DNA of 32,856 nt from Acetofilamentum sp. (GCA_020722645.1 DYKL01000004.1:1-32856), one strand, 5' to 3'. Positions 588 to 11,670 are shown, counted from the stretch's first letter. The notes: a model not told the origin generated them from the letters alone. Numbers and translations: made by a program.

Positions 588-2027
588 CTAAATTTTGGGG
601 TTAAACTTTAAAACACTAAAAGCCCCTTTAACTGCATACATAAATTCCTGTAATGAACGAATCTCTTTTAGTTTATTTATTACTGTAATTGGTCTTAAAT
701 AAAATCTTTTAAATGATTGTTTTATCGTTTTAAATAAAAATTGTTCAGAAACAATTTCTGTCCAGTATTCTACTTTAAAATTTTCATAAATTTCAATTGG
801 ATTTTCTGCAAATTCAAGCCAATAATCTTTTGAAAATAAACCTTTTTCAAGTCCTTCCAAATAAGCTTCGGTAAAAGGATATGGAACCAAAACACTATAC
901 TGGGCATAATTTAAACCAATTTTTCTTGAAAATCTCAAAGTTTCTAATATATCTTCTTCCGTTTCGTCCGGTAAGCCAATCATAAAATTACCAATAGTTG
1001 TTATTTTAGCTTTTTTGCACCATTTAATAACTTTTTTAATTTGTTCGGTTGTTATACCTTTTTTAATACGTTTCAATGTTTTTTCAACACCTGATTCAAT
1101 ACCGAATTGTATTCTATGAATATTTGCAGCTTTGACTTCTTTTATCAACTCTTCGGTAATGGTATTTATACGACCTCTGAAACTCCAATCGATTTTAATT
1201 TTTTCATCTTGCAAAGCTTTTGCAAAATCTATTACCTTTTTGGGCTGTAGTGCAAATAAATCATCAAAAAAGAATATTTCTTTATAACCTAAATCAAGTA
1301 AATATTTTATTTCTTCAATAATGTTCTTTGTGGAACGACTTCTATATTGTTTACTAGGACAGTAGCAATAAGTACATTTGAAAGGACAACCTCTTGAAGA
1401 CATGACGGTTGCAACCATTTTATTTCTACCAACAATACTTTTATACAAATCCATTGGCAATAGAGTTCTGTCAGGAATTGGTAAAATGTCTAAATTTTGA
1501 ATAAAAGGAATATTAGAATTATAAAAAATTTCATTATTTTTTAAAAAGCCGATACCTTGTATTTTTGATAATTCTTCATCATTTTTATTATTTTGCAATC
1601 CATCAATAAGTTCTAAAAATGTAAATTCAGCTTCACCGTTTAAAATAAAATCGATATTAGGATATTTAATACTTTGTTTAGGATAAAGAAAAGTATGATG
1701 TCCACCAATTATAACATAAATTTCAGTATTCAATTCTTTCACCAATTTTGCGGTATCCAAAACATCAATAATTGATGTAGTAAAAGTTGTTATACCCACG
1801 GCAAAAGGATTAAACAATAAAATTTCAGACTTAATTTCTTCAAAGTCATATTTCATTGGAACACAGTCCAAAATTTTAACTTCGTAAGCATTATTTTTCA
1901 GCACTGTTGCCAAATACATCAAACCAAGCGGAGGATAATATCCTATAATATCAATAAAATCGTCTTCAATTCCGGCAGCAACAACATTTTTCTGTGGAGG
2001 ATTTATAAGTAAAATTTTATTATTCAT
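588..2027 (-). CDS. Cobalamin-binding radical SAM protein (class B / BchE-like)
   Basis: N-terminal B12-binding region (YPPLGLMYLA, IIGGHH, GEAE), SRGCPFKCTYC CxxxCxxC, FFDDLF, GIESG, FMIGLP. Start moved from TTG 2054 to ATG 2027 (MNNKILLINPP). Confidence 0.9.
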   Translation of the reverse strand: MNNKILLINPPQKNVVAAGIEDDFIDIIGYYPPLGLMYLATVLKNNAYEVKILDCVPMKYDFEEIKSEILLFNPFAVGITTFTTSIIDVLDTAKLVKELNTEIYVIIGGHHTFLYPKQSIKYPNIDFILNGEAEFTFLELIDGLQNNKNDEELSKIQGIGFLKNNEIFYNSNIPFIQNLDILPIPDRTLLPMDLYKSIVGRNKMVATVMSSRGCPFKCTYCYCPSKQYRSRSTKNIIEEIKYLLDLGYKEIFFFDDLFALQPKKVIDFAKALQDEKIKIDWSFRGRINTITEELIKEVKAANIHRIQFGIESGVEKTLKRIKKGITTEQIKKVIKWCKKAKITTIGNFMIGLPDETEEDILETLRFSRKIGLNYAQYSVLVPYPFTEAYLEGLEKGLFSKDYWLEFAENPIEIYENFKVEYWTEIVSEQFLFKTIKQSFKRFYLRPITVINKLKEIRSLQEFMYAVKGAFSVLKFNPKI

Positions 2028-2040
2028 AAATATACATATA

Positions 2041-2065
2041 AAAAAAGTCTGCAAAAGCAGACTTT
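2041..2065 (-). terminator. Intrinsic terminator downstream of the 922-aa sensor gene
   Basis: On the minus strand AAAGTCTGC-TTTT-GCAGACTTT forms a 9-bp stem that ends in a U6 run, 3 nt after the stop codon at 2069. Confidence 0.7.
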
Positions 2066-2068
2066 AAT

Positions 2069-4837
2069 TTATCTGATTCCATGTTTTTTAAATAAATCTA
2101 CATATTTTTTATCAGTAACAGTAACGTGTTCAGTAACCCAAGATTTCAAAAGAATAATCAACTGAAATACAGAATTTTTGCTACCACCAACGTATTCAGT
2201 AAACAATTCAATTACCCTGTTAACAAATTTTTGATGATTAATATGATGATTATCAAAATCCTGATAATTAAATTCTTTCATATACTTTTCTTCAAAACCG
2301 AAGTGATAATCTGTATAATCCATTAATTTTTTAAAAATTTCATTTAAAGCGATGTCTTTATCATCACTGTTTAATACTTCATAAAGCTTATTAATAAATT
2401 CAATCCAGCGTTTATGCTGATTATCAATCATTGATATACCTAACTCAAATTTTGGTCCCCATTTAATAAGTTGTTTTTTGTCTATATCTATATTAGTCAG
2501 CGGTATATTATTTTTTTCAAGTAACTCTGTATATTTTTCGATAAGCATAGAGTTTTGAAAATCTTTTTTAGCAAGCTCATTAATAAATTCTTGGCTCATA
2601 TCAACTTTTTTAGCAAATCGTTCAGTGTCTTTTAAGAACAATACCATTCTCATGTCTTCTTCTTTTTCTGCTTCGATAATCATCATTTCAAGATGGACTT
2701 TTTGAGTTTTACCATCTTTTATTGTGATAATAAAATCTTTGCCTTTATCATGTTTAATTTTCTCCATATTTTCGAACAAAAATTCACAAAGTTTAGCATC
2801 TTTTGCTTCAGGTGGTTTCAGTAACAATTTTTCAACATTTAGTCCAAGTATTTCCATTTCGTTATACCCCCATAAATCTTCTGCCGCTATATTAACAAAA
2901 TCAATAATCCCGTCTCTTTTAATTATCAAAACGGCTGTCATCATAAAATTCAATATTTCAAGACTTTGTTTCTGACTTTTAGATATTTGTTTGATTTTTG
3001 TATCGTTTTCCTGTGTAAGTTTCTGAATTTCTAATTTTTGTATTTCGTCTTTGTACTTAATTTGTTTATTAGCTTCTTCAAGGTCTCTAACTAAATTTCG
3101 TAAATTATCTTCATTTTTTCTTCTTTCATCGTGAGCTTTTTTAAGTTCATCAATTGTAGAACGCATCGCCGTTTCCTGTTCTTTCATTTCAGCCGCCTGA
3201 ATCTGGAATTTTTCGAGTAAATCAGTAGTTTGAGCAGAAATACGAACAGATTTAAGAGTAGATCCGATACTTTCAGCAATTTTTTCTACAAGCTCAATTT
3301 CATATTGATCAAATGTTCTGAACGAAGCCAATTCAACCACACCTAAAACTTCAGTATCTACTTTTAAAGGAACAATAAGAATACTTCGTGGATTTGCAGC
3401 ACCTGTTCCTGATTTAATTTCTATATAATCTTCGGGAACATCAGTCATATAAACTGTAAATTTTTCGACGGCAACAGCACCAATTAAACCCTCGCCAAGT
3501 TCAAGTTTCTTTTCAATAAATTTTTCTCTGTTCCACGCGTACGCAGAAAGAATATCCAAATAAATATGTCTTTTATCTTCATCATTTAATAAAAATATAA
3601 CACCTTGATTACAGTTCAAAAATTTAACTAAATTTGAAATAACTTCACTTCCTAATTTTTTCAGATTATGTTGATTTTGTCGAAGAATATCAGAAAATTT
3701 AGCCAAACCGTCAGCAGTTCTGCTTCTTCTGTAGTCTTCCAGTTTTCTGTTTTCTTCTTCTCTTTTAGCAGACAACAAACTTTCGCGAAGTTGAATCAGA
3801 GAATTCCCTAAAACGTCTGTATCACTAGCAGGATAGAATTTATAATCAAAATTACCGCCTGAAATTTCCTTTGCAAATTCAGCCGAATGCTTTAAATTTG
3901 TAACTAAAGACTCTAAAGATTCAACGATAAGTCCAATTTCATCAGTCCTGTCTTTATCTATGTTTTTAGGAAATTTTCCTTTGGATAAGTTAAGAATTAT
4001 TTCATTGGTTTCTGTAAGTGGTTTAATAACATTACCTGAAATAACGAAACTTATAATCAGAATAAGAATTAAAGAAACAGAAAAAATAATAGCAGTTGAT
4101 ATTATTGTATTTCTTCTTGCTCCTGTTATCAATTGTTCATCTTTGTTTGTTTCTTCCTGAATATTATATGATATTTTGTCTAATGAAAAAGTTTGTGATT
4201 TAATTTTATTTGTAATAAAAACAGTAATATCATTTATTGATTTTTCGTAAACACTTACCAATTCTTCAACAACCTCATCTTTATCGGTATATTCTTCGTC
4301 GTAAGACGTAACAATAACGCCAATATGCTGCTGTTCGTTAACTAACCTTTCGTAATCATCTTTAATTTTTTCGGGATGAATAATTAAATATTTGTACTCA
4401 ATTAATTTGTTTACAGATAATTTGATATTATCATTGTATATCCCTTCGTATTTAAACAAAGTATCATTAAAAGAGGAAAGGAAATTTATAGTATTTTGAT
4501 CTTTTAAATTTTTAATGTCAATATTTTCGAGTTCGATAAAAACAGAAGAAATATCAATGTCAAGAGATTTGAACTCGTTGGAATTTTTTACAAAGTCATC
4601 ATTGTTATTAGAATTGGCAATTTTTGCCATTGTTGCATCTAATTTAAAATACAAATTCTGTAATTTTATAAAATTGTTTTTGTATAAAGTCAGAACATAT
4701 CTGTCTTCATAATTTTTCTGAATTTTTACAATTTTATTAAACTCAATTATTCCAATGCCTAACGAGAGAAAAAGAGTAAATAATAGCCCAAAAATAATTT
4801 TATTTTTTATACTGATATTGTCAATAAAAGTTGCCAT
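2069..4837 (-). CDS. Membrane sensor: 2 TM + periplasmic helical domain, HAMP, GAF, coiled coil, PAS, C-terminal bacteriohemerythrin
   Basis: Hydrophobic segments at about aa 13-32 and 245-270; HAMP (VIKPL...DEIGLIVESLESL); GAF (GEGLIGAVA, SILIVPLK, VLGVVELAS); PAS (GIIDFVNIAAEDLWGY); hemerythrin ligands IDNQH, HFGFEE, HHINH, HVTVTD. Confidence 0.85.
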   Translation of the reverse strand: MATFIDNISIKNKIIFGLLFTLFLSLGIGIIEFNKIVKIQKNYEDRYVLTLYKNNFIKLQNLYFKLDATMAKIANSNNNDDFVKNSNEFKSLDIDISSVFIELENIDIKNLKDQNTINFLSSFNDTLFKYEGIYNDNIKLSVNKLIEYKYLIIHPEKIKDDYERLVNEQQHIGVIVTSYDEEYTDKDEVVEELVSVYEKSINDITVFITNKIKSQTFSLDKISYNIQEETNKDEQLITGARRNTIISTAIIFSVSLILILIISFVISGNVIKPLTETNEIILNLSKGKFPKNIDKDRTDEIGLIVESLESLVTNLKHSAEFAKEISGGNFDYKFYPASDTDVLGNSLIQLRESLLSAKREEENRKLEDYRRSRTADGLAKFSDILRQNQHNLKKLGSEVISNLVKFLNCNQGVIFLLNDEDKRHIYLDILSAYAWNREKFIEKKLELGEGLIGAVAVEKFTVYMTDVPEDYIEIKSGTGAANPRSILIVPLKVDTEVLGVVELASFRTFDQYEIELVEKIAESIGSTLKSVRISAQTTDLLEKFQIQAAEMKEQETAMRSTIDELKKAHDERRKNEDNLRNLVRDLEEANKQIKYKDEIQKLEIQKLTQENDTKIKQISKSQKQSLEILNFMMTAVLIIKRDGIIDFVNIAAEDLWGYNEMEILGLNVEKLLLKPPEAKDAKLCEFLFENMEKIKHDKGKDFIITIKDGKTQKVHLEMMIIEAEKEEDMRMVLFLKDTERFAKKVDMSQEFINELAKKDFQNSMLIEKYTELLEKNNIPLTNIDIDKKQLIKWGPKFELGISMIDNQHKRWIEFINKLYEVLNSDDKDIALNEIFKKLMDYTDYHFGFEEKYMKEFNYQDFDNHHINHQKFVNRVIELFTEYVGGSKNSVFQLIILLKSWVTEHVTVTDKKYVDLFKKHGIR

Positions 4838-4857: not shown

Positions 4858-4865
4858 CAAAGTTA
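4858..4865 (-). promoter_or_regulatory. Bacteroidota -7 promoter element for the sensor gene
   Basis: TAACTTTG on the minus strand (TAnnTTTG consensus), 20 nt upstream of ATG 4837. Confidence 0.5.
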
Positions 4866-8945: not shown

Positions 8946-10817
8946 CTATCTTTTCAAAAAAATCAAAATAGTATTAATGTCAGAAGGAGAAACGCCCGGT
9001 ATCCGTTGAGCTTCTCCAATGGTTCTTGGTTTAATTCTGTTTAATTTCTGTCTTGCTTCGGTTGAAATAGATTGTAGTTGTTGATAATCAAAATCGGGGT
9101 TGAGTTTTATGTTTTCTAATTTTATAATTTTTTCTGCAATTTCTTTTTCTTTGTCTATATAGTTTTGATATTTAATTTTAATTTCAGCAGATTCAATAAT
9201 CTCGTTGTTAATATTATTTTGTTCAATAAAATTCGAAATTTTTGGTAAAATTTCTTTTAAAGTAGAAATAGAAACTTCCGGTCTTAAAAGAAATTTTTCA
9301 GCTTTAAGACTTTGCGATAAAGCTGCTGAATTTATCTGTTTCAAATAATCATTTGCTTCACTTGGGGAAATTCTCAATTTTGCAATAAAATTAATAAACT
9401 TATTTATTAATTCGTATTTGTTTTTGTAAATATCATATCTATTCTTGGGAAGTAATCCTATTTCGTGACCCAAATCGGATAAACGTTCATCTGCATTATC
9501 TTGTCTCAATAAAATTCTATATTCAGCTCTTGATGTAAACATTCTATATGGTTCATCAACTCCTTTTAAGACCAAATCATCAATAAGAACACCAATGTAA
9601 GAGCTATCACGAGATAAAACAACAGGTTCTAAATCGTTTAAGATACGATGAGCATTAATTGCAGCCATCAAACCTTGAGCTGCAGCTTCTTCGTATCCGG
9701 TTGTTCCATTTACTTGACCGGCAAAAAAAAGATTTTTTATAATTTTTGATTCTAAAGAGTGATTTAATTGAGTAGGTGGAAAATAATCGTATTCAATAGC
9801 ATAAGCCGGTCTGAAAATAGTAGCATTTTCAAAACCTTCAATTTTACTTAATGCTTTTTCCTGAATTTCTAAAGGCAAAGAAGAAGAAAAACCATTAAGA
9901 TAATATTCTACGGTGTCAGTACCTTCGGGTTCAAGGAATAAAAGATGTTGATTTTTTTCAGAAAAAGTAACTAATTTATCCTCAATACTTGGGCAATATC
10001 TTGGACCACGACCTTTAATAACGCCTGAAAAAAGAGGAGAAAATTTGAACCCTTTTTTTAATTCATTATGAACATCTAAATTAGTATAAACTAAAAAACA
10101 ACTTTTAGAAGGAAGTATTTGTTTTGATTCCGGGTCATAAGAAAATTTACCGGTTTGCTCATCAGGTTTTTGTTCAATAAGCTTAGAAAAATCTACGGTT
10201 CTGCCGTCAATTCTAGGTGGTGTACCGGTTTTCATTCTGTCAGCTTTAATACCGAGGCTAACAATTTGTTCGGTTAGATGATAAGAAGCTTCCTCTCCTA
10301 CTCTCCCGCCCTGAATTTGATTACTACCAACGTGCATTAAGCCATTTAAAAAAGTACCGGCAGTTAAAATAACAGCTTTAGAATAAAAAGAAACACCCCA
10401 TTTAGTTCTGACACCTTTTAAAATATCTTTTTCAACAATAAGTTGAGTTACGGTATCTTGCCAGAAATATAAATTAGGTATTTTTTCCAATCTGTCACGC
10501 CAAGCAATCGAAAATTTAACTCTGTCAGATTGAGCTCTGGGACTCCACATAGCCGGACCTTTTGATTTATTGAGCATTCTGAATTGAATCATAGTTTCGT
10601 CTGTAACATAACCGGATAGTCCACCTAAAGCATCAATTTCACGAATAATCTGACCTTTTGCTATACCGCCCATTGCAGGATTACAAGACATTTGAGCTAT
10701 TTTAGTCATATCCATAGTTACAAGTAAGACAGAAGAGCCAAGATTAGCAGCGGCAGAAGCAGCTTCAGCACCAGCGTGACCGGCACCAACTACAATAATA
10801 TCAAAATTTGTTTTCAC
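8946..10817 (-). CDS. mnmG: tRNA uridine-5-carboxymethylaminomethyl(34) synthesis enzyme MnmG (GidA)
   Basis: VVGAGHAGAEAA, MSCNPAMGGIAKG, KTGTPPR, GPRYCPSIEDK, AGQVNGTTGYEEAAAQG, YRMFTSRAEYR; GTG start. Confidence 0.98.
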   Translation of the reverse strand: MKTNFDIIVVGAGHAGAEAASAAANLGSSVLLVTMDMTKIAQMSCNPAMGGIAKGQIIREIDALGGLSGYVTDETMIQFRMLNKSKGPAMWSPRAQSDRVKFSIAWRDRLEKIPNLYFWQDTVTQLIVEKDILKGVRTKWGVSFYSKAVILTAGTFLNGLMHVGSNQIQGGRVGEEASYHLTEQIVSLGIKADRMKTGTPPRIDGRTVDFSKLIEQKPDEQTGKFSYDPESKQILPSKSCFLVYTNLDVHNELKKGFKFSPLFSGVIKGRGPRYCPSIEDKLVTFSEKNQHLLFLEPEGTDTVEYYLNGFSSSLPLEIQEKALSKIEGFENATIFRPAYAIEYDYFPPTQLNHSLESKIIKNLFFAGQVNGTTGYEEAAAQGLMAAINAHRILNDLEPVVLSRDSSYIGVLIDDLVLKGVDEPYRMFTSRAEYRILLRQDNADERLSDLGHEIGLLPKNRYDIYKNKYELINKFINFIAKLRISPSEANDYLKQINSAALSQSLKAEKFLLRPEVSISTLKEILPKISNFIEQNNINNEIIESAEIKIKYQNYIDKEKEIAEKIIKLENIKLNPDFDYQQLQSISTEARQKLNRIKPRTIGEAQRIPGVSPSDINTILIFLKR

Positions 10818-10819
10818 AA

Positions 10820-11236
10820 CTAAATATTTAACTTTAATAAATTATTATCTTCTAATTTTCTCATATTAAACCTTTTTTCGTCAGTATCATCAGAAAAACC
10901 CAAAAGATGTAAAACACCGTGAGCGATAACTCTGTGCAACTCATCTTGAAAAGTTTTTTTAAAAAGGGTGGCATTTTCTTCAACACGTTCAATACTTATT
11001 AACAAATCACCTGATATGTAATCATTATGAGAATTGTCAAAAGTTATTATGTCAGTATAATAGTTATGATTCAAATATTTTTGATTTATTTCAAGTAAAT
11101 ATTTATCAGAAACAAAAACAACAGAAATATCACCAAGTTTTTTTTTATAAGATTCAATAATTTCTTTTATCCATTTTTTAATAATTGTTTTATTTTTAAA
11201 AGTAAAAGAAATATCTTCAGTTACAAAATTAATCAT
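10820..11236 (-). CDS. ybeY: rRNA maturation endoribonuclease YbeY
   Basis: TDIITF, GDLLIS, and the metal-binding region HRVIAHGVLHLLGFSD. Confidence 0.93.
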   Translation of the reverse strand: MINFVTEDISFTFKNKTIIKKWIKEIIESYKKKLGDISVVFVSDKYLLEINQKYLNHNYYTDIITFDNSHNDYISGDLLISIERVEENATLFKKTFQDELHRVIAHGVLHLLGFSDDTDEKRFNMRKLEDNNLLKLNI

Positions 11237-11238
11237 AA

Positions 11239-11670
11239 TTATAAATTGAAAATCATTTTAACAATTTGTCCATTATTATAAGAAAATTCGACAATATCGG
11301 CTAAATTAAGAATAATAAATACACCTCTGCCTGTTAATTTTTCTCGATTTATAGTTTCAGTGGGGTCATCAATTAATTTATAATCAAAACCGGCACCTTC
11401 ATCTTTAACAGCAATTTCGAGTTTTTTAGATGAAATTTTGTAATATACAGTAACATTTTTATTTGGATTAAACTTATTACCGTGCACAATAGCATTGTTA
11501 ATAGCCTCAGATAATGATAACAAAACATTACCATATATTTCGTCAGAAATCACAATTTTTGAAGACATCTTTTGAATGACCTGCTCGGCATAAGTAATAT
11601 TTTTAAAATCAGATTGAAATACGATTATTTCATCATAATTATTCTTTTCCAAGTCTGTACATGTAATCAT
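11239..11670 (-). CDS. RsbW-like GHKL ATP-binding protein (HATPase_c_2)
   Basis: N box EAINNAIVHGNK, G1 box DEGAGFD, G2 box GRGVFII; exact start uncertain because it overlaps the upstream gene. Confidence 0.85.
   Translation of the reverse strand: MITCTDLEKNNYDEIIVFQSDFKNITYAEQVIQKMSSKIVISDEIYGNVLLSLSEAINNAIVHGNKFNPNKNVTVYYKISSKKLEIAVKDEGAGFDYKLIDDPTETINREKLTGRGVFIILNLADIVEFSYNNGQIVKMIFNL

Follow-up and report, generated by a model that had tools for sequence, protein, structure and literature searches.

A probable hemerythrin-based oxygen sensor on a transmitter-less HAMP-GAF scaffold in an anaerobic Bacteroidales bacterium

A stretch of 32,856 nucleotides from Acetofilamentum sp. (GCA_020722645.1, DYKL01000004.1:1-32856), hereafter the window, carries on its minus strand a gene, P0001, that encodes a membrane receptor of 922 amino acids (aa) ending in a bacteriohemerythrin. 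The host is an anaerobic Bacteroidales bacterium with a genome assembly of 3.93 Mb in 684 contigs that is 96.7% complete. P0001 is probably a hemerythrin O2 sensor mounted on a methylatable scaffold that differs from that of the methyl-accepting chemotaxis proteins (MCPs) and has no transmitter of its own. In the wider reading, P0001 would be an O2 or redox receptor with DcrH as its analogue; its scaffold would be RsbK-like and open to methylation, and it would feed a partner switch of the SiaABC type. Taken as a whole chain, we consider this a serious possibility that falls a little short of an even chance. Confidence decreases along the chain, from iron binding by the hemerythrin and its response to O2 or redox state, through the role of the core as transmitter and methylation by CheR and CheB, to coupling with the GAF, PP2C and SiaB-SiaC proteins. 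The architecture, metal ligands, conservation pattern, gene orders and gene inventories reported here are observations; O2 binding, methylation, all contacts and the output of P0001 are things that we infer. The receptor gene and its parts lie as follows.

2069..4837, minus strand: receptor gene P0001, 922 aa, ATG start, stop codon at 2069-2071
4736..4804, minus strand: first transmembrane segment (TM1), aa 12-34, from hydropathy windows; helix 10-74 in the AlphaFold2 model
4115..4735, minus strand: periplasmic all-helical bundle, aa 35-241, from the model; poorly conserved, with a mean column identity of 30% (alignment A2)
4043..4114, minus strand: second transmembrane segment (TM2), aa 242-265, from hydropathy; continuous model helix 186-285
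3890..4042, minus strand: HAMP, aa 266-316, Pfam PF00672, 27.7 bits (cut-off 25)
3671..3889, minus strand: second HAMP-like helix-loop-helix, aa 317-389; in the model helix 300-326, loop, helix 342-387
3254..3670, minus strand: GAF, aa 390-528, Pfam GAF_2, 55.7 bits; many invariant residues, from Q411 to I524
3131..3253, minus strand: signalling helix after the GAF, aa 529-569, from family alignments
2945..3130, minus strand: long helix (coiled coil), aa 570-631, model helix 556-631; weakly conserved
2624..2944, minus strand: PAS, aa 632-738, Pfam PAS_9 at 635-738, 31.9 bits (cut-off 27)
2471..2623, minus strand: helix and linker, aa 739-789, model helix 738-775; aa 781-784 of low confidence
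2072..2470, minus strand: bacteriohemerythrin, aa 790-922, NCBIfam NF033749 over aa 790-916

This order of parts (periplasmic domain, HAMP, GAF, coiled coil, PAS, hemerythrin) had been proposed in the initial annotation, which was made from the sequence alone, and is borne out by Pfam, NCBIfam and the predicted structure. By hydropathy, the chain spans the membrane at about aa 12-34 and again at about aa 242-275. The full-length AlphaFold2 model, based on 42 orthologues, has a mean predicted local distance difference test score (pLDDT) of 80.2 and a predicted template modelling score (pTM) of 0.37, and each stretch of the chain could be assigned in it: helices over aa 10-285, two helix-loop-helix units at 286-387, GAF at 392-533 and PAS at 635-737. 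What follows the GAF is modelled as a single helix of about 100 aa and not as a hairpin. The second HAMP-like unit (aa 317-389) receives no Pfam call; in the alignment of the 42 orthologues its D341 and L347 are invariant, while L343 and N345 are conserved at 90% or more. When folded alone, the periplasmic region (aa 30-250) reaches a pLDDT of 88.1 and a pTM of 0.78. It has no Pfam match, 4HB_MCP included, and its best VIA matches include four-helix-bundle sensor domains of chemoreceptors and kinases (8bsa, Z 14.5; 4k0d, 13.6; 6s18, 13.1; 2d4u, 13.1), a likeness that is consistent with such a domain but non-specific, since designed and de novo helical bundles give equal Z values (13-14.5). According to Foldseek, the PAS has a fold like the PAS of FixL and DosP and contains a single invariant residue, N649. 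A heme-PAS reading was dropped because this fold comes with no conserved His in the receptor family.

No output domain could be found in P0001. Pfam gives no match at E<=1 to a kinase (H-box/HATPase), GGDEF/EAL, SpoIIE or MCPsignal (PF00015) domain, and the kinase and MCP equivalogs of NCBIfam reach at most 21 bits, via the HAMP region alone, against cut-offs of 450-947. A hidden DHp histidine was sought over aa 529-790, where no column of alignment A1 has His in at least 10 of the 42 sequences. Foldseek against the PDB returned solely GAF, PAS and hemerythrin matches for the P0001 model, with no MCP structure among them. Since neither the profile searches (Pfam and NCBIfam, E<=1) nor the full-length model and its Foldseek matches reveal one, a cryptic output domain is rejected, and the lack of kinase, cyclase, PP2C/SpoIIE and MCP output claimed at the outset is upheld.

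The C-terminal domain is recognised by Pfam Hemerythrin at aa 800-914 (44.2 bits, cut-off 25.3) and, over aa 790-916, by the NCBIfam bacteriohemerythrin models NF033749 (113.8 bits, cut-off 84) and TIGR02481 (100.2 bits, cut-off 51.75); the NCBIfam span of 2072-2470 agrees with the approximate limits, 2069-2470, first given for it. None of the seven di-iron ligands is missing (H808, H845, E849, H864, H868, H904 and D909), so that the HHEHHHD pattern is complete, as had been claimed. The predicted structure is a four-helix bundle (helices 802-822, 828-855, 861-883 and 888-918) that Foldseek matches to the DcrH hemerythrin 3waq with a TM-score of 0.94 and a root mean square deviation of 1.3 A. 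Among solved structures, DcrH-Hr 2avk is the best relative (E 9.8e-19) and aligns end to end. From its sequence, this hemerythrin would be expected to bind iron and to respond to O2 or to redox state. Among hemerythrins checked outside the family, the closest, at 40% identity, is the C-terminus of a HAMP-MCPsignal-hemerythrin protein; this DcrH-type protein of 637 aa is encoded in a Bacteroidales genome (G067:C9, L122:2122-4035, minus strand; G, C and L designate genomes, contigs and loci).

The metal site is kept unevenly. Ligands are intact in 39 of the 42 aligned orthologues. The 44 genome copies comprise 23 with the complete set of seven ligands, one with a single change and 20 that lack three of the His (pattern xHExHYD), at positions 808, 864 and 904; two of these 20, L033 and L035, also lose the Glu. 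All 20 come from one clade of metagenome-assembled genomes (MAGs) from animal guts (L006-L013, L018, L020, L022, L028-L030, L033, L035-L037, L040 and L072), and the receptor stays full length in each. Ligand loss in this clade fits a situation in which O2 sensing is dispensable in the permanently anoxic gut. Across 151 genomes sampled throughout the order, nearly all from different families, about 18 have a hemerythrin match within a frame of at least 800 aa, one per genome, and in 15 of these, the P0001 genome included, the hemerythrin lies on the same frame as a core match among the matches listed.

P0001 belongs to a large family. End-to-end orthologues were found at 66%, 63%, 57% identity and lower, and 43 full-length copies were located in separate genome assemblies. 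The presence of full-length orthologues in many Bacteroidales excludes an assembly chimera. A word-indexed search retrieved 173 relatives of P0001; the 70 best after the query are 827-1305 aa long, 69 of the 70 carry the hemerythrin Pfam domain, and several bear the name 'bacteriohemerythrin' in Bacteroidales MAGs. The precomputed Pfam domains of the best 120 of the 173 include none for a kinase, cyclase, PP2C or MCP. An exhaustive phmmer search yielded 3,889 representative clusters at E<=1e-30. Of the best 150 representatives, 36 match through to the hemerythrin and the rest match only about aa 240-590 of the query (TM2-HAMP-GAF-helix). A search for longer fused forms (1615-4610 aa) yielded no scoring match, which is weak evidence on that point. 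The part that is most conserved in the family is thus not the hemerythrin. Judged from the alignments, it is HAMP-GAF-signalling helix: the invariant residues of the 42 orthologues cluster in aa 287-551, the GAF surpasses every other block of the family in conservation and has a near-invariant SG.G..P loop, and the hemerythrin is less conserved than this core.

The host genome itself yields 14 matches. Eleven are proteins of 521-1375 aa in which a sensor domain (dCache, Cache3-Cache2 or PDC) precedes HAMP-GAF, with or without a variable number of PAS domains, and which have no output domain by Pfam. The other three are a GAF-PAS-PAS-SpoIIE protein, a GAF-only protein of 247 aa and P0001, the sole hemerythrin carrier of the set. 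The input-only design is not singular: in the host, P0001 belongs to a set of 12 transmitter-less paralogues. The GAF had been counted as a fourth sensor; since the GAF and the following helix are the most conserved parts, they are better read as a shared transmitting or docking core. Neither a protein with the architecture of P0001 nor the pathway proposed here is described in the literature searched, at the level of titles and abstracts and with subscription journals outside its coverage. Neither a cryptic domain, nor a chimera, nor, in that literature, a characterised protein of the same architecture was found, any of which would have spoken against the first description.

On a 96-row tree of the core, three changes suffice for the hemerythrin label, compared with a mean of 32.3 in shuffles, and one of the 'non-hemerythrin' rows is cut by a contig end. 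In the best tree, ten short forms of 554-685 aa make up a clade nested within the hemerythrin clade, with which they share the ileS-dksA-lspA synteny. A tree uniting all hemerythrin forms is not rejected by the approximately unbiased test (p 0.336), which is compatible with a single origin of these forms. Topology and shared synteny suggest secondary loss of PAS-hemerythrin in the short forms. One locus, L056, is labelled Thiohalospira sp. and has a gene order and core nearly identical to those of the Bacteroidales loci L052, L055 and L058; this contig has probably been mis-binned into a gammaproteobacterial MAG.

The helix that follows the GAF is common to all paralogues and relatives aligned. 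Over 94 distinct cores, T537 and L540 are each kept in 91 of 93, E555 in 85 of 93 and Q554 in 73 of 93. The family consensus of this helix includes N-x-R-T, several paralogues reading NERT. As described by Anantharaman, Balaji and Aravind (2006, PMC1592074), an S-helix connects two signalling domains over about 40 residues and bears an ERT signature at its centre. The helix of P0001 keeps T537, L540, L541, Q547, M551, Q554 and E555.

Candidate partners of the core emerge from gene order in relatives. The initial annotation had proposed signalling by protein-protein contact; the same reading was reached here, with partners that can now be named. Two loci, L069 and L070, share the order CheR, a HAMP-GAF-PAS-PAS protein of 792 aa with no output, CheR, CheB, GAF-only, GAF-PAS-PAS-SpoIIE, DUF6272, SiaC and TerB/ABC; there, CheB is a receiver-less methylesterase of 186 aa, the GAF-only protein has 267 aa and the GAF-PAS-PAS-SpoIIE protein 878 aa. 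DUF6272 corresponds to the SiaB-family kinase (NCBIfam NF038262, 172.7 bits, cut-off 85). Four separate lineages show the seven-gene order CheR-CheR-CheB-GAF-PP2C-SiaB-SiaC. In the complete genome G029, the seven genes are preceded by Hpt-CheA-CheW-CheW-...-HATPase-CheD-CheB(REC) and a GAF-PAS-PAS gene, and in G119, which has no MCP match, the seven genes stand alone. A CheR gene is found in an operon with other family members in L051, L069, L070, G029 and G111.

In the host (G000) the same genes are distributed over two contigs outside the window. Contig C387 carries CheR-CheR-CheB(190 aa)-GAF-only, the CheR pair (C387:9773-10618 and 10621-11448) and CheB (C387:11456-12028) together lying at C387:9773-12028, while contig C615 carries a 1375-aa output-less receptor followed by GAF-PAS-PAS-SpoIIE-SiaB-SiaC-TerB/ABC, with PP2C, SiaB-family kinase and SiaC together at C615:19859-23492. 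The host proteins with which the core of P0001 might interact, and the GAF-only proteins aligned, are:

C387:12021-12764 (L098:12021-12764): GAF-only protein with two transmembrane segments, host
C615:20883-23492: GAF-PAS-PAS-PP2C phosphatase, host
L098:12021-12764, L120:9404-10156, L118:5195-5965 (minus strand), L069:8953-9756 and L070:9409-10209: the GAF-only proteins aligned

Both the PP2C and the GAF-only proteins carry the family-specific GAF, and the PP2C carries the helix as well. All five aligned GAF-only proteins begin with two hydrophobic helices and have, by Pfam, a GAF alone. From their sequences they are probably membrane proteins, which would sit with the receptors, and may serve as a membrane adaptor. 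Upstream of the CheR pair (G000:C387:7326-9731) lies a gene for a protein of 801 aa that has no Pfam match and a weak similarity to TonB-dependent receptors in NCBIfam.

Di-iron proteins recur in such operons. In G087, a gene for a 135-aa hemerythrin is inserted between CheR and HATPase-CheD-CheB-SiaB-SiaC. In G111, a gene for an ODP-like protein of metallo-beta-lactamase fold is flanked by CheR genes on both sides, and an MCP 4 kb upstream has two hemerythrin genes next to it.

L116:7147-7728: metallo-beta-lactamase-fold protein of G111, 193 aa, weak ODP-family match

This protein brings to mind ODP, a di-iron chemotaxis sensor of Treponema denticola. The presence of di-iron genes inside the G087 and G111 operons points to such proteins as recurrent, exchangeable inputs of Che/Sia operons, the input being fused to the receptor in P0001.

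The host assembly has three CheR, one CheB and no MCPsignal or CheW matches, together with 53 SpoIIE, 20 SiaC and 16 SiaB-family matches. Among the 151 genomes, the core (aa 340-560) is matched in 73 at E<=1e-10 and in 54 at E<=1e-40. CheR and CheB are each present in 54 of these 54 strong-core genomes, compared with 50 and 35, respectively, of the 97 others. The informative cases are ten of the 54 that have no MCPsignal match and keep both CheR and CheB (G000, G025, G042, G046, G078, G082, G113, G116, G119 and G127). Among the frames listed, a short receiver-less CheB is found in G000, G042, G113, G116 and G119, the exception being G127, whose sole CheB lies in a frame of 882 aa.

Put together, these elements suggest the following mechanism. 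P0001 would form a dimer in the inner membrane and receive input of two kinds, through a variable periplasmic helical bundle that would sense a ligand, and through a cytoplasmic PAS-hemerythrin tip that would report O2 or the redox state of the di-iron site, as proposed for DcrH. The transmitter would be the family-wide HAMP-GAF-signalling-helix core, with no enzyme of its own. Glu and Gln residues of the helix might be reversibly methylated by the CheR pair and the receiver-less CheB of the host, after the example of RsbM and RsbK. The core would couple to two proteins that have the same GAF, namely the two-TM GAF-only protein and the GAF-PAS-PAS-PP2C phosphatase. The phosphatase and the SiaB-family kinase would set the phosphorylation of the SiaC-family protein, which would then control an effector; the adjoining gene encodes a TerB-ABC exporter. 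We infer the action of P0001 on a SiaABC-type switch from gene order in relatives only.

Several known systems invite comparison. DcrH of Desulfovibrio vulgaris (PDB 2avk, 2awc, 3waq), from an anaerobe like P0001, has two transmembrane segments, a periplasmic domain, a HAMP and a C-terminal cytoplasmic bacteriohemerythrin. It differs in possessing an MCP signalling hairpin and working with CheA/CheW, whereas P0001 has GAF, a putative S-helix and PAS instead and CheW is absent from the assembly. In DcrH, too, the way in which the hemerythrin communicates with the remainder of the chain has yet to be established, by the account in PMC9388753. RsbK of Bacillus cereus (CHASE3-HAMP-GAF-S-helix-HK-REC) shares with P0001 the order of membrane sensor, HAMP, GAF and signalling helix; PMC4574943 describes methylation of its S-helix by the CheR-type RsbM and a pathway that ends in a PP2C/partner-switch module. 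In RsbK, however, the helix is followed by a histidine kinase and receiver, and rsbM is in the operon, while P0001 has PAS-hemerythrin in this position and CheR is on another contig. As in the host, PP2C, SiaB-family kinase and SiaC are encoded together in the SiaABCD system of Pseudomonas aeruginosa, where, according to PMC8457831 and bioRxiv 10.1101/674879, the membrane/HAMP input is part of SiaA itself and the cyclase SiaD is the target. In contrast, the phosphatase of the host is a soluble GAF-PAS-PAS-SpoIIE protein, its inputs would be separate receptors, and the neighbour is a TerB-ABC transporter. Other proteins in which a hemerythrin is fused as an O2/redox module to a signalling or transport protein, as presented in PMC9388753, are Bhr-DGC, Bhr-HD-GYP and the P1B-5-ATPase; all have the enzymatic or transport domain in the same chain, and P0001 has none. 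In the hemerythrin survey PMC4919030 the words GAF and PAS are absent. Finally, classical MCPs (Tsr, Tar, PcaY, Vc1313) resemble P0001 in membrane topology, in a similar periplasmic helical bundle and in a HAMP after TM2. They have the MCP hairpin that P0001 lacks, and the match of the helical-bundle fold (Vc1313, Adeh_2942, PcaY, Tsr) is non-specific.

A number of observations weigh against the proposed chain. At the ERT-like signature P0001 reads S-A-Q-T, the T being kept and R replaced by Q, and further along it has QETA compared with QEEE in the family, that is T-A for the two following Glu. The classical methylation-site consensus of MCPs could not be fitted to the helix. In the monomer model, aa 533-550 have a pLDDT below 50, and the apparent location of the polar residues S544, A548 and E555 at heptad core positions would fit this low confidence. 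CheR, CheB or PP2C genes lie beside the receptor in none of 47 hemerythrin-type loci. MCPsignal is matched in 44 of the 54 strong-core genomes and in 15 of the 97 others; since MCPs co-occur with the receptors, CheR and CheB may serve the MCPs, and the phyletic link is confounded by a rich sensory lifestyle. A genome of the same genus, G069, has three MCPsignal matches, and the lack of MCPs in the 684-contig assembly of the host may be an assembly gap. Chance alone would, on a rough estimate, place a receptor within 5 kb of a CheR in about 5 of the 54 genomes, and at least 12 were seen among the matches listed; proximity to CheR alone is weak evidence, and only the repeated gene order is specific.

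Several of these points feed the main rival to the methylation chain, in which P0001 is the same O2/redox receptor with another partner and no methylation. It would signal by direct contact or in mixed dimers, either with a PP2C sensor phosphatase, of which the host has about 50, or with a paralogue, while methylation serves MCPs or other substrates. In its favour, the host has 53 SpoIIE and 20 SiaC matches, orthologues of P0001 are beside CheR in none of the loci examined, most receptor-rich genomes also have MCPs and the helix of P0001 departs from the family motif. Against it stand the CheR-CheR-CheB-GAF-PP2C-SiaB-SiaC order in four lineages, present alone in G119, which has no MCP match, the GAF that the PP2C and GAF-only proteins share with the family and the helix that the PP2C shares as well, and a host that keeps CheR and CheB while no MCP or CheW was found in its assembly. 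We consider it unlikely, though the strongest of the alternatives. Less probable still is a reading in which the conserved GAF has a small-molecule ligand, for instance a metabolite or cyclic nucleotide, and P0001 acts as a membrane integrator, sink or oligomer switch with no dedicated pathway. The GAF is indeed the most conserved block, with its near-invariant SG.G..P loop, and Foldseek matches include the cyclic-nucleotide-binding GAFs 1ykd and 1mc0; strict conservation over 12 paralogues with differing sensors, however, fits a common protein partner at least equally well, and the GAF-only and PP2C proteins of the CheR operon carry the same GAF.

The hemerythrin could also be the output, as a membrane-tethered buffer or scavenger of O2 or iron gated by the periplasmic and PAS/GAF inputs. 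In favour of this, the di-iron site of P0001 is intact, single-domain hemerythrins have been proposed to protect Fe-S enzymes in Campylobacter (according to PMC4257069), and a B12/radical-SAM gene comes after the receptor. One hemerythrin per receptor is a poor buffer, though, the radical-SAM neighbour is limited to the two closest relatives and set apart by a terminator-like hairpin, and the domain is less conserved than the core. The gut clade also keeps the protein with three of seven ligands lost; that the receptor outlives its metal site argues against the hemerythrin as output. The suggestion that the hemerythrin itself is a redox/O2 effector thus finds no support, and it is further disfavoured by the short forms without PAS-hemerythrin that adjoin or nest in the clade and share its synteny. 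We regard this possibility as very improbable. Hardly credible, finally, is the idea that a sensor kinase or phosphatase lost its output and survives in P0001 as a decaying or non-functional relic. A SpoIIE terminus does exist in one branch of the family; against decay, the orthologues are full length at 30%-66% identity, have no stops and a constant size of about 900-930 aa, the ligands are intact in nearly all aligned sequences, and the gene has its own promoter-like box and terminator-like hairpin.

In the window, the immediate surroundings of P0001 are as follows.

4858..4865, minus strand: TAACTTTG, promoter-like box, 21 nt before the ATG; a reading of the sequence
2044..2065, minus strand: terminator-like hairpin with a 9-bp stem, 4 GC pairs and a T-run, between the receptor stop and the ATG of the next gene
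588-2054, minus strand: B12-binding radical SAM gene (Pfam B12-binding and Radical_SAM); likely start ATG 2027 and not the listed TTG 2054
11239-11670, minus strand: HATPase_c_2 protein, 143 aa, weakly RsbW/SpoIIAB-like, between a 1098-aa DUF4175 protein and ybeY-mnmG

The spacer upstream of P0001 is AT-rich and 62 bp long, and TAACTTTG resembles the -7 promoter box of Bacteroidetes, TAnnTTTG. A scan for sigma-70 promoters gave 50 sites compared with a mean of 49.1 in shuffles, hence no excess. The gene looks monocistronic. Of the sequencing runs listed as containing the stretch, none is of RNA and one is of DNA (X1), which may be its source. ORFs (open reading frames) were called and clustered in 78 loci fetched from genome assemblies. 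The neighbours of hemerythrin-type receptors are housekeeping genes that depend on the clade: polyprenyl synthase (in the window, L001, L004, L014 and L019), ileS-dksA-lspA, or MTHFR. Among the hemerythrin-type loci, a SiaC gene adjoins the receptor only in L006 and is a few genes away in L013 and L043.

Two neighbours were considered as partners and rejected. Besides the window, the B12/radical SAM gene follows the receptor in L001 and L004/G069 alone, it is separated from the receptor by the hairpin, and its product is below all NCBIfam cut-offs, the best being HpnJ (200 against 577.6) and BchE (191.6 against 481). The RsbW-like HATPase_c_2 protein is 6.4 kb away and syntenic in close relatives alone, the four-gene order around it being kept in L004, L014 and L019. 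Elsewhere in the host genome, two paralogous gene pairs (G000:C288:5829-7162 and G000:C617:6630-7929; L113:1171-2504 and L114:891-2190) each encode a protein of 240-248 aa with a C-terminal HHE/hemerythrin domain followed by a GerE/LuxR-type helix-turn-helix protein of 191-194 aa. These could constitute a separate iron- or O2-responsive transcription unit.

The characterised hemerythrin sensors described in PMC9388753 all carry their output in the same chain (MCP, diguanylate cyclase, HD-GYP or P-type ATPase), while P0001 is conserved without one. Transmitter-less receptors, with thousands of members in this family, dominate the sensory repertoire of many anaerobic Bacteroidales. A broader generalisation, doubtful at present and less likely than the chain proposed for P0001 itself, is that Bacteroidota possess a second type of adapting receptor array, hitherto undescribed. 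Transmitter-less HAMP-GAF-S-helix receptors would replace MCPs, with the CheR pair and receiver-less CheB methylating the helix; the membrane GAF and GAF-PP2C proteins would stand in for CheW and CheA, and SiaC phosphorylation for the CheY read-out. In such an array P0001 would serve as O2 receptor, a part corresponding to that of DcrH in classical chemotaxis. If the wiring proposed for P0001 is right, it would explain the role of CheR and CheB in non-flagellated Bacteroidota without MCPs, provide a concrete route for O2 sensing by strict anaerobes and extend methylation-based adaptation beyond chemotaxis proteins, for which RsbK of B. cereus is the sole precedent in the literature searched. 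The contrast between an intact di-iron site and its decay in the animal-gut clade amounts to a natural experiment on the conditions under which O2 sensing is retained.

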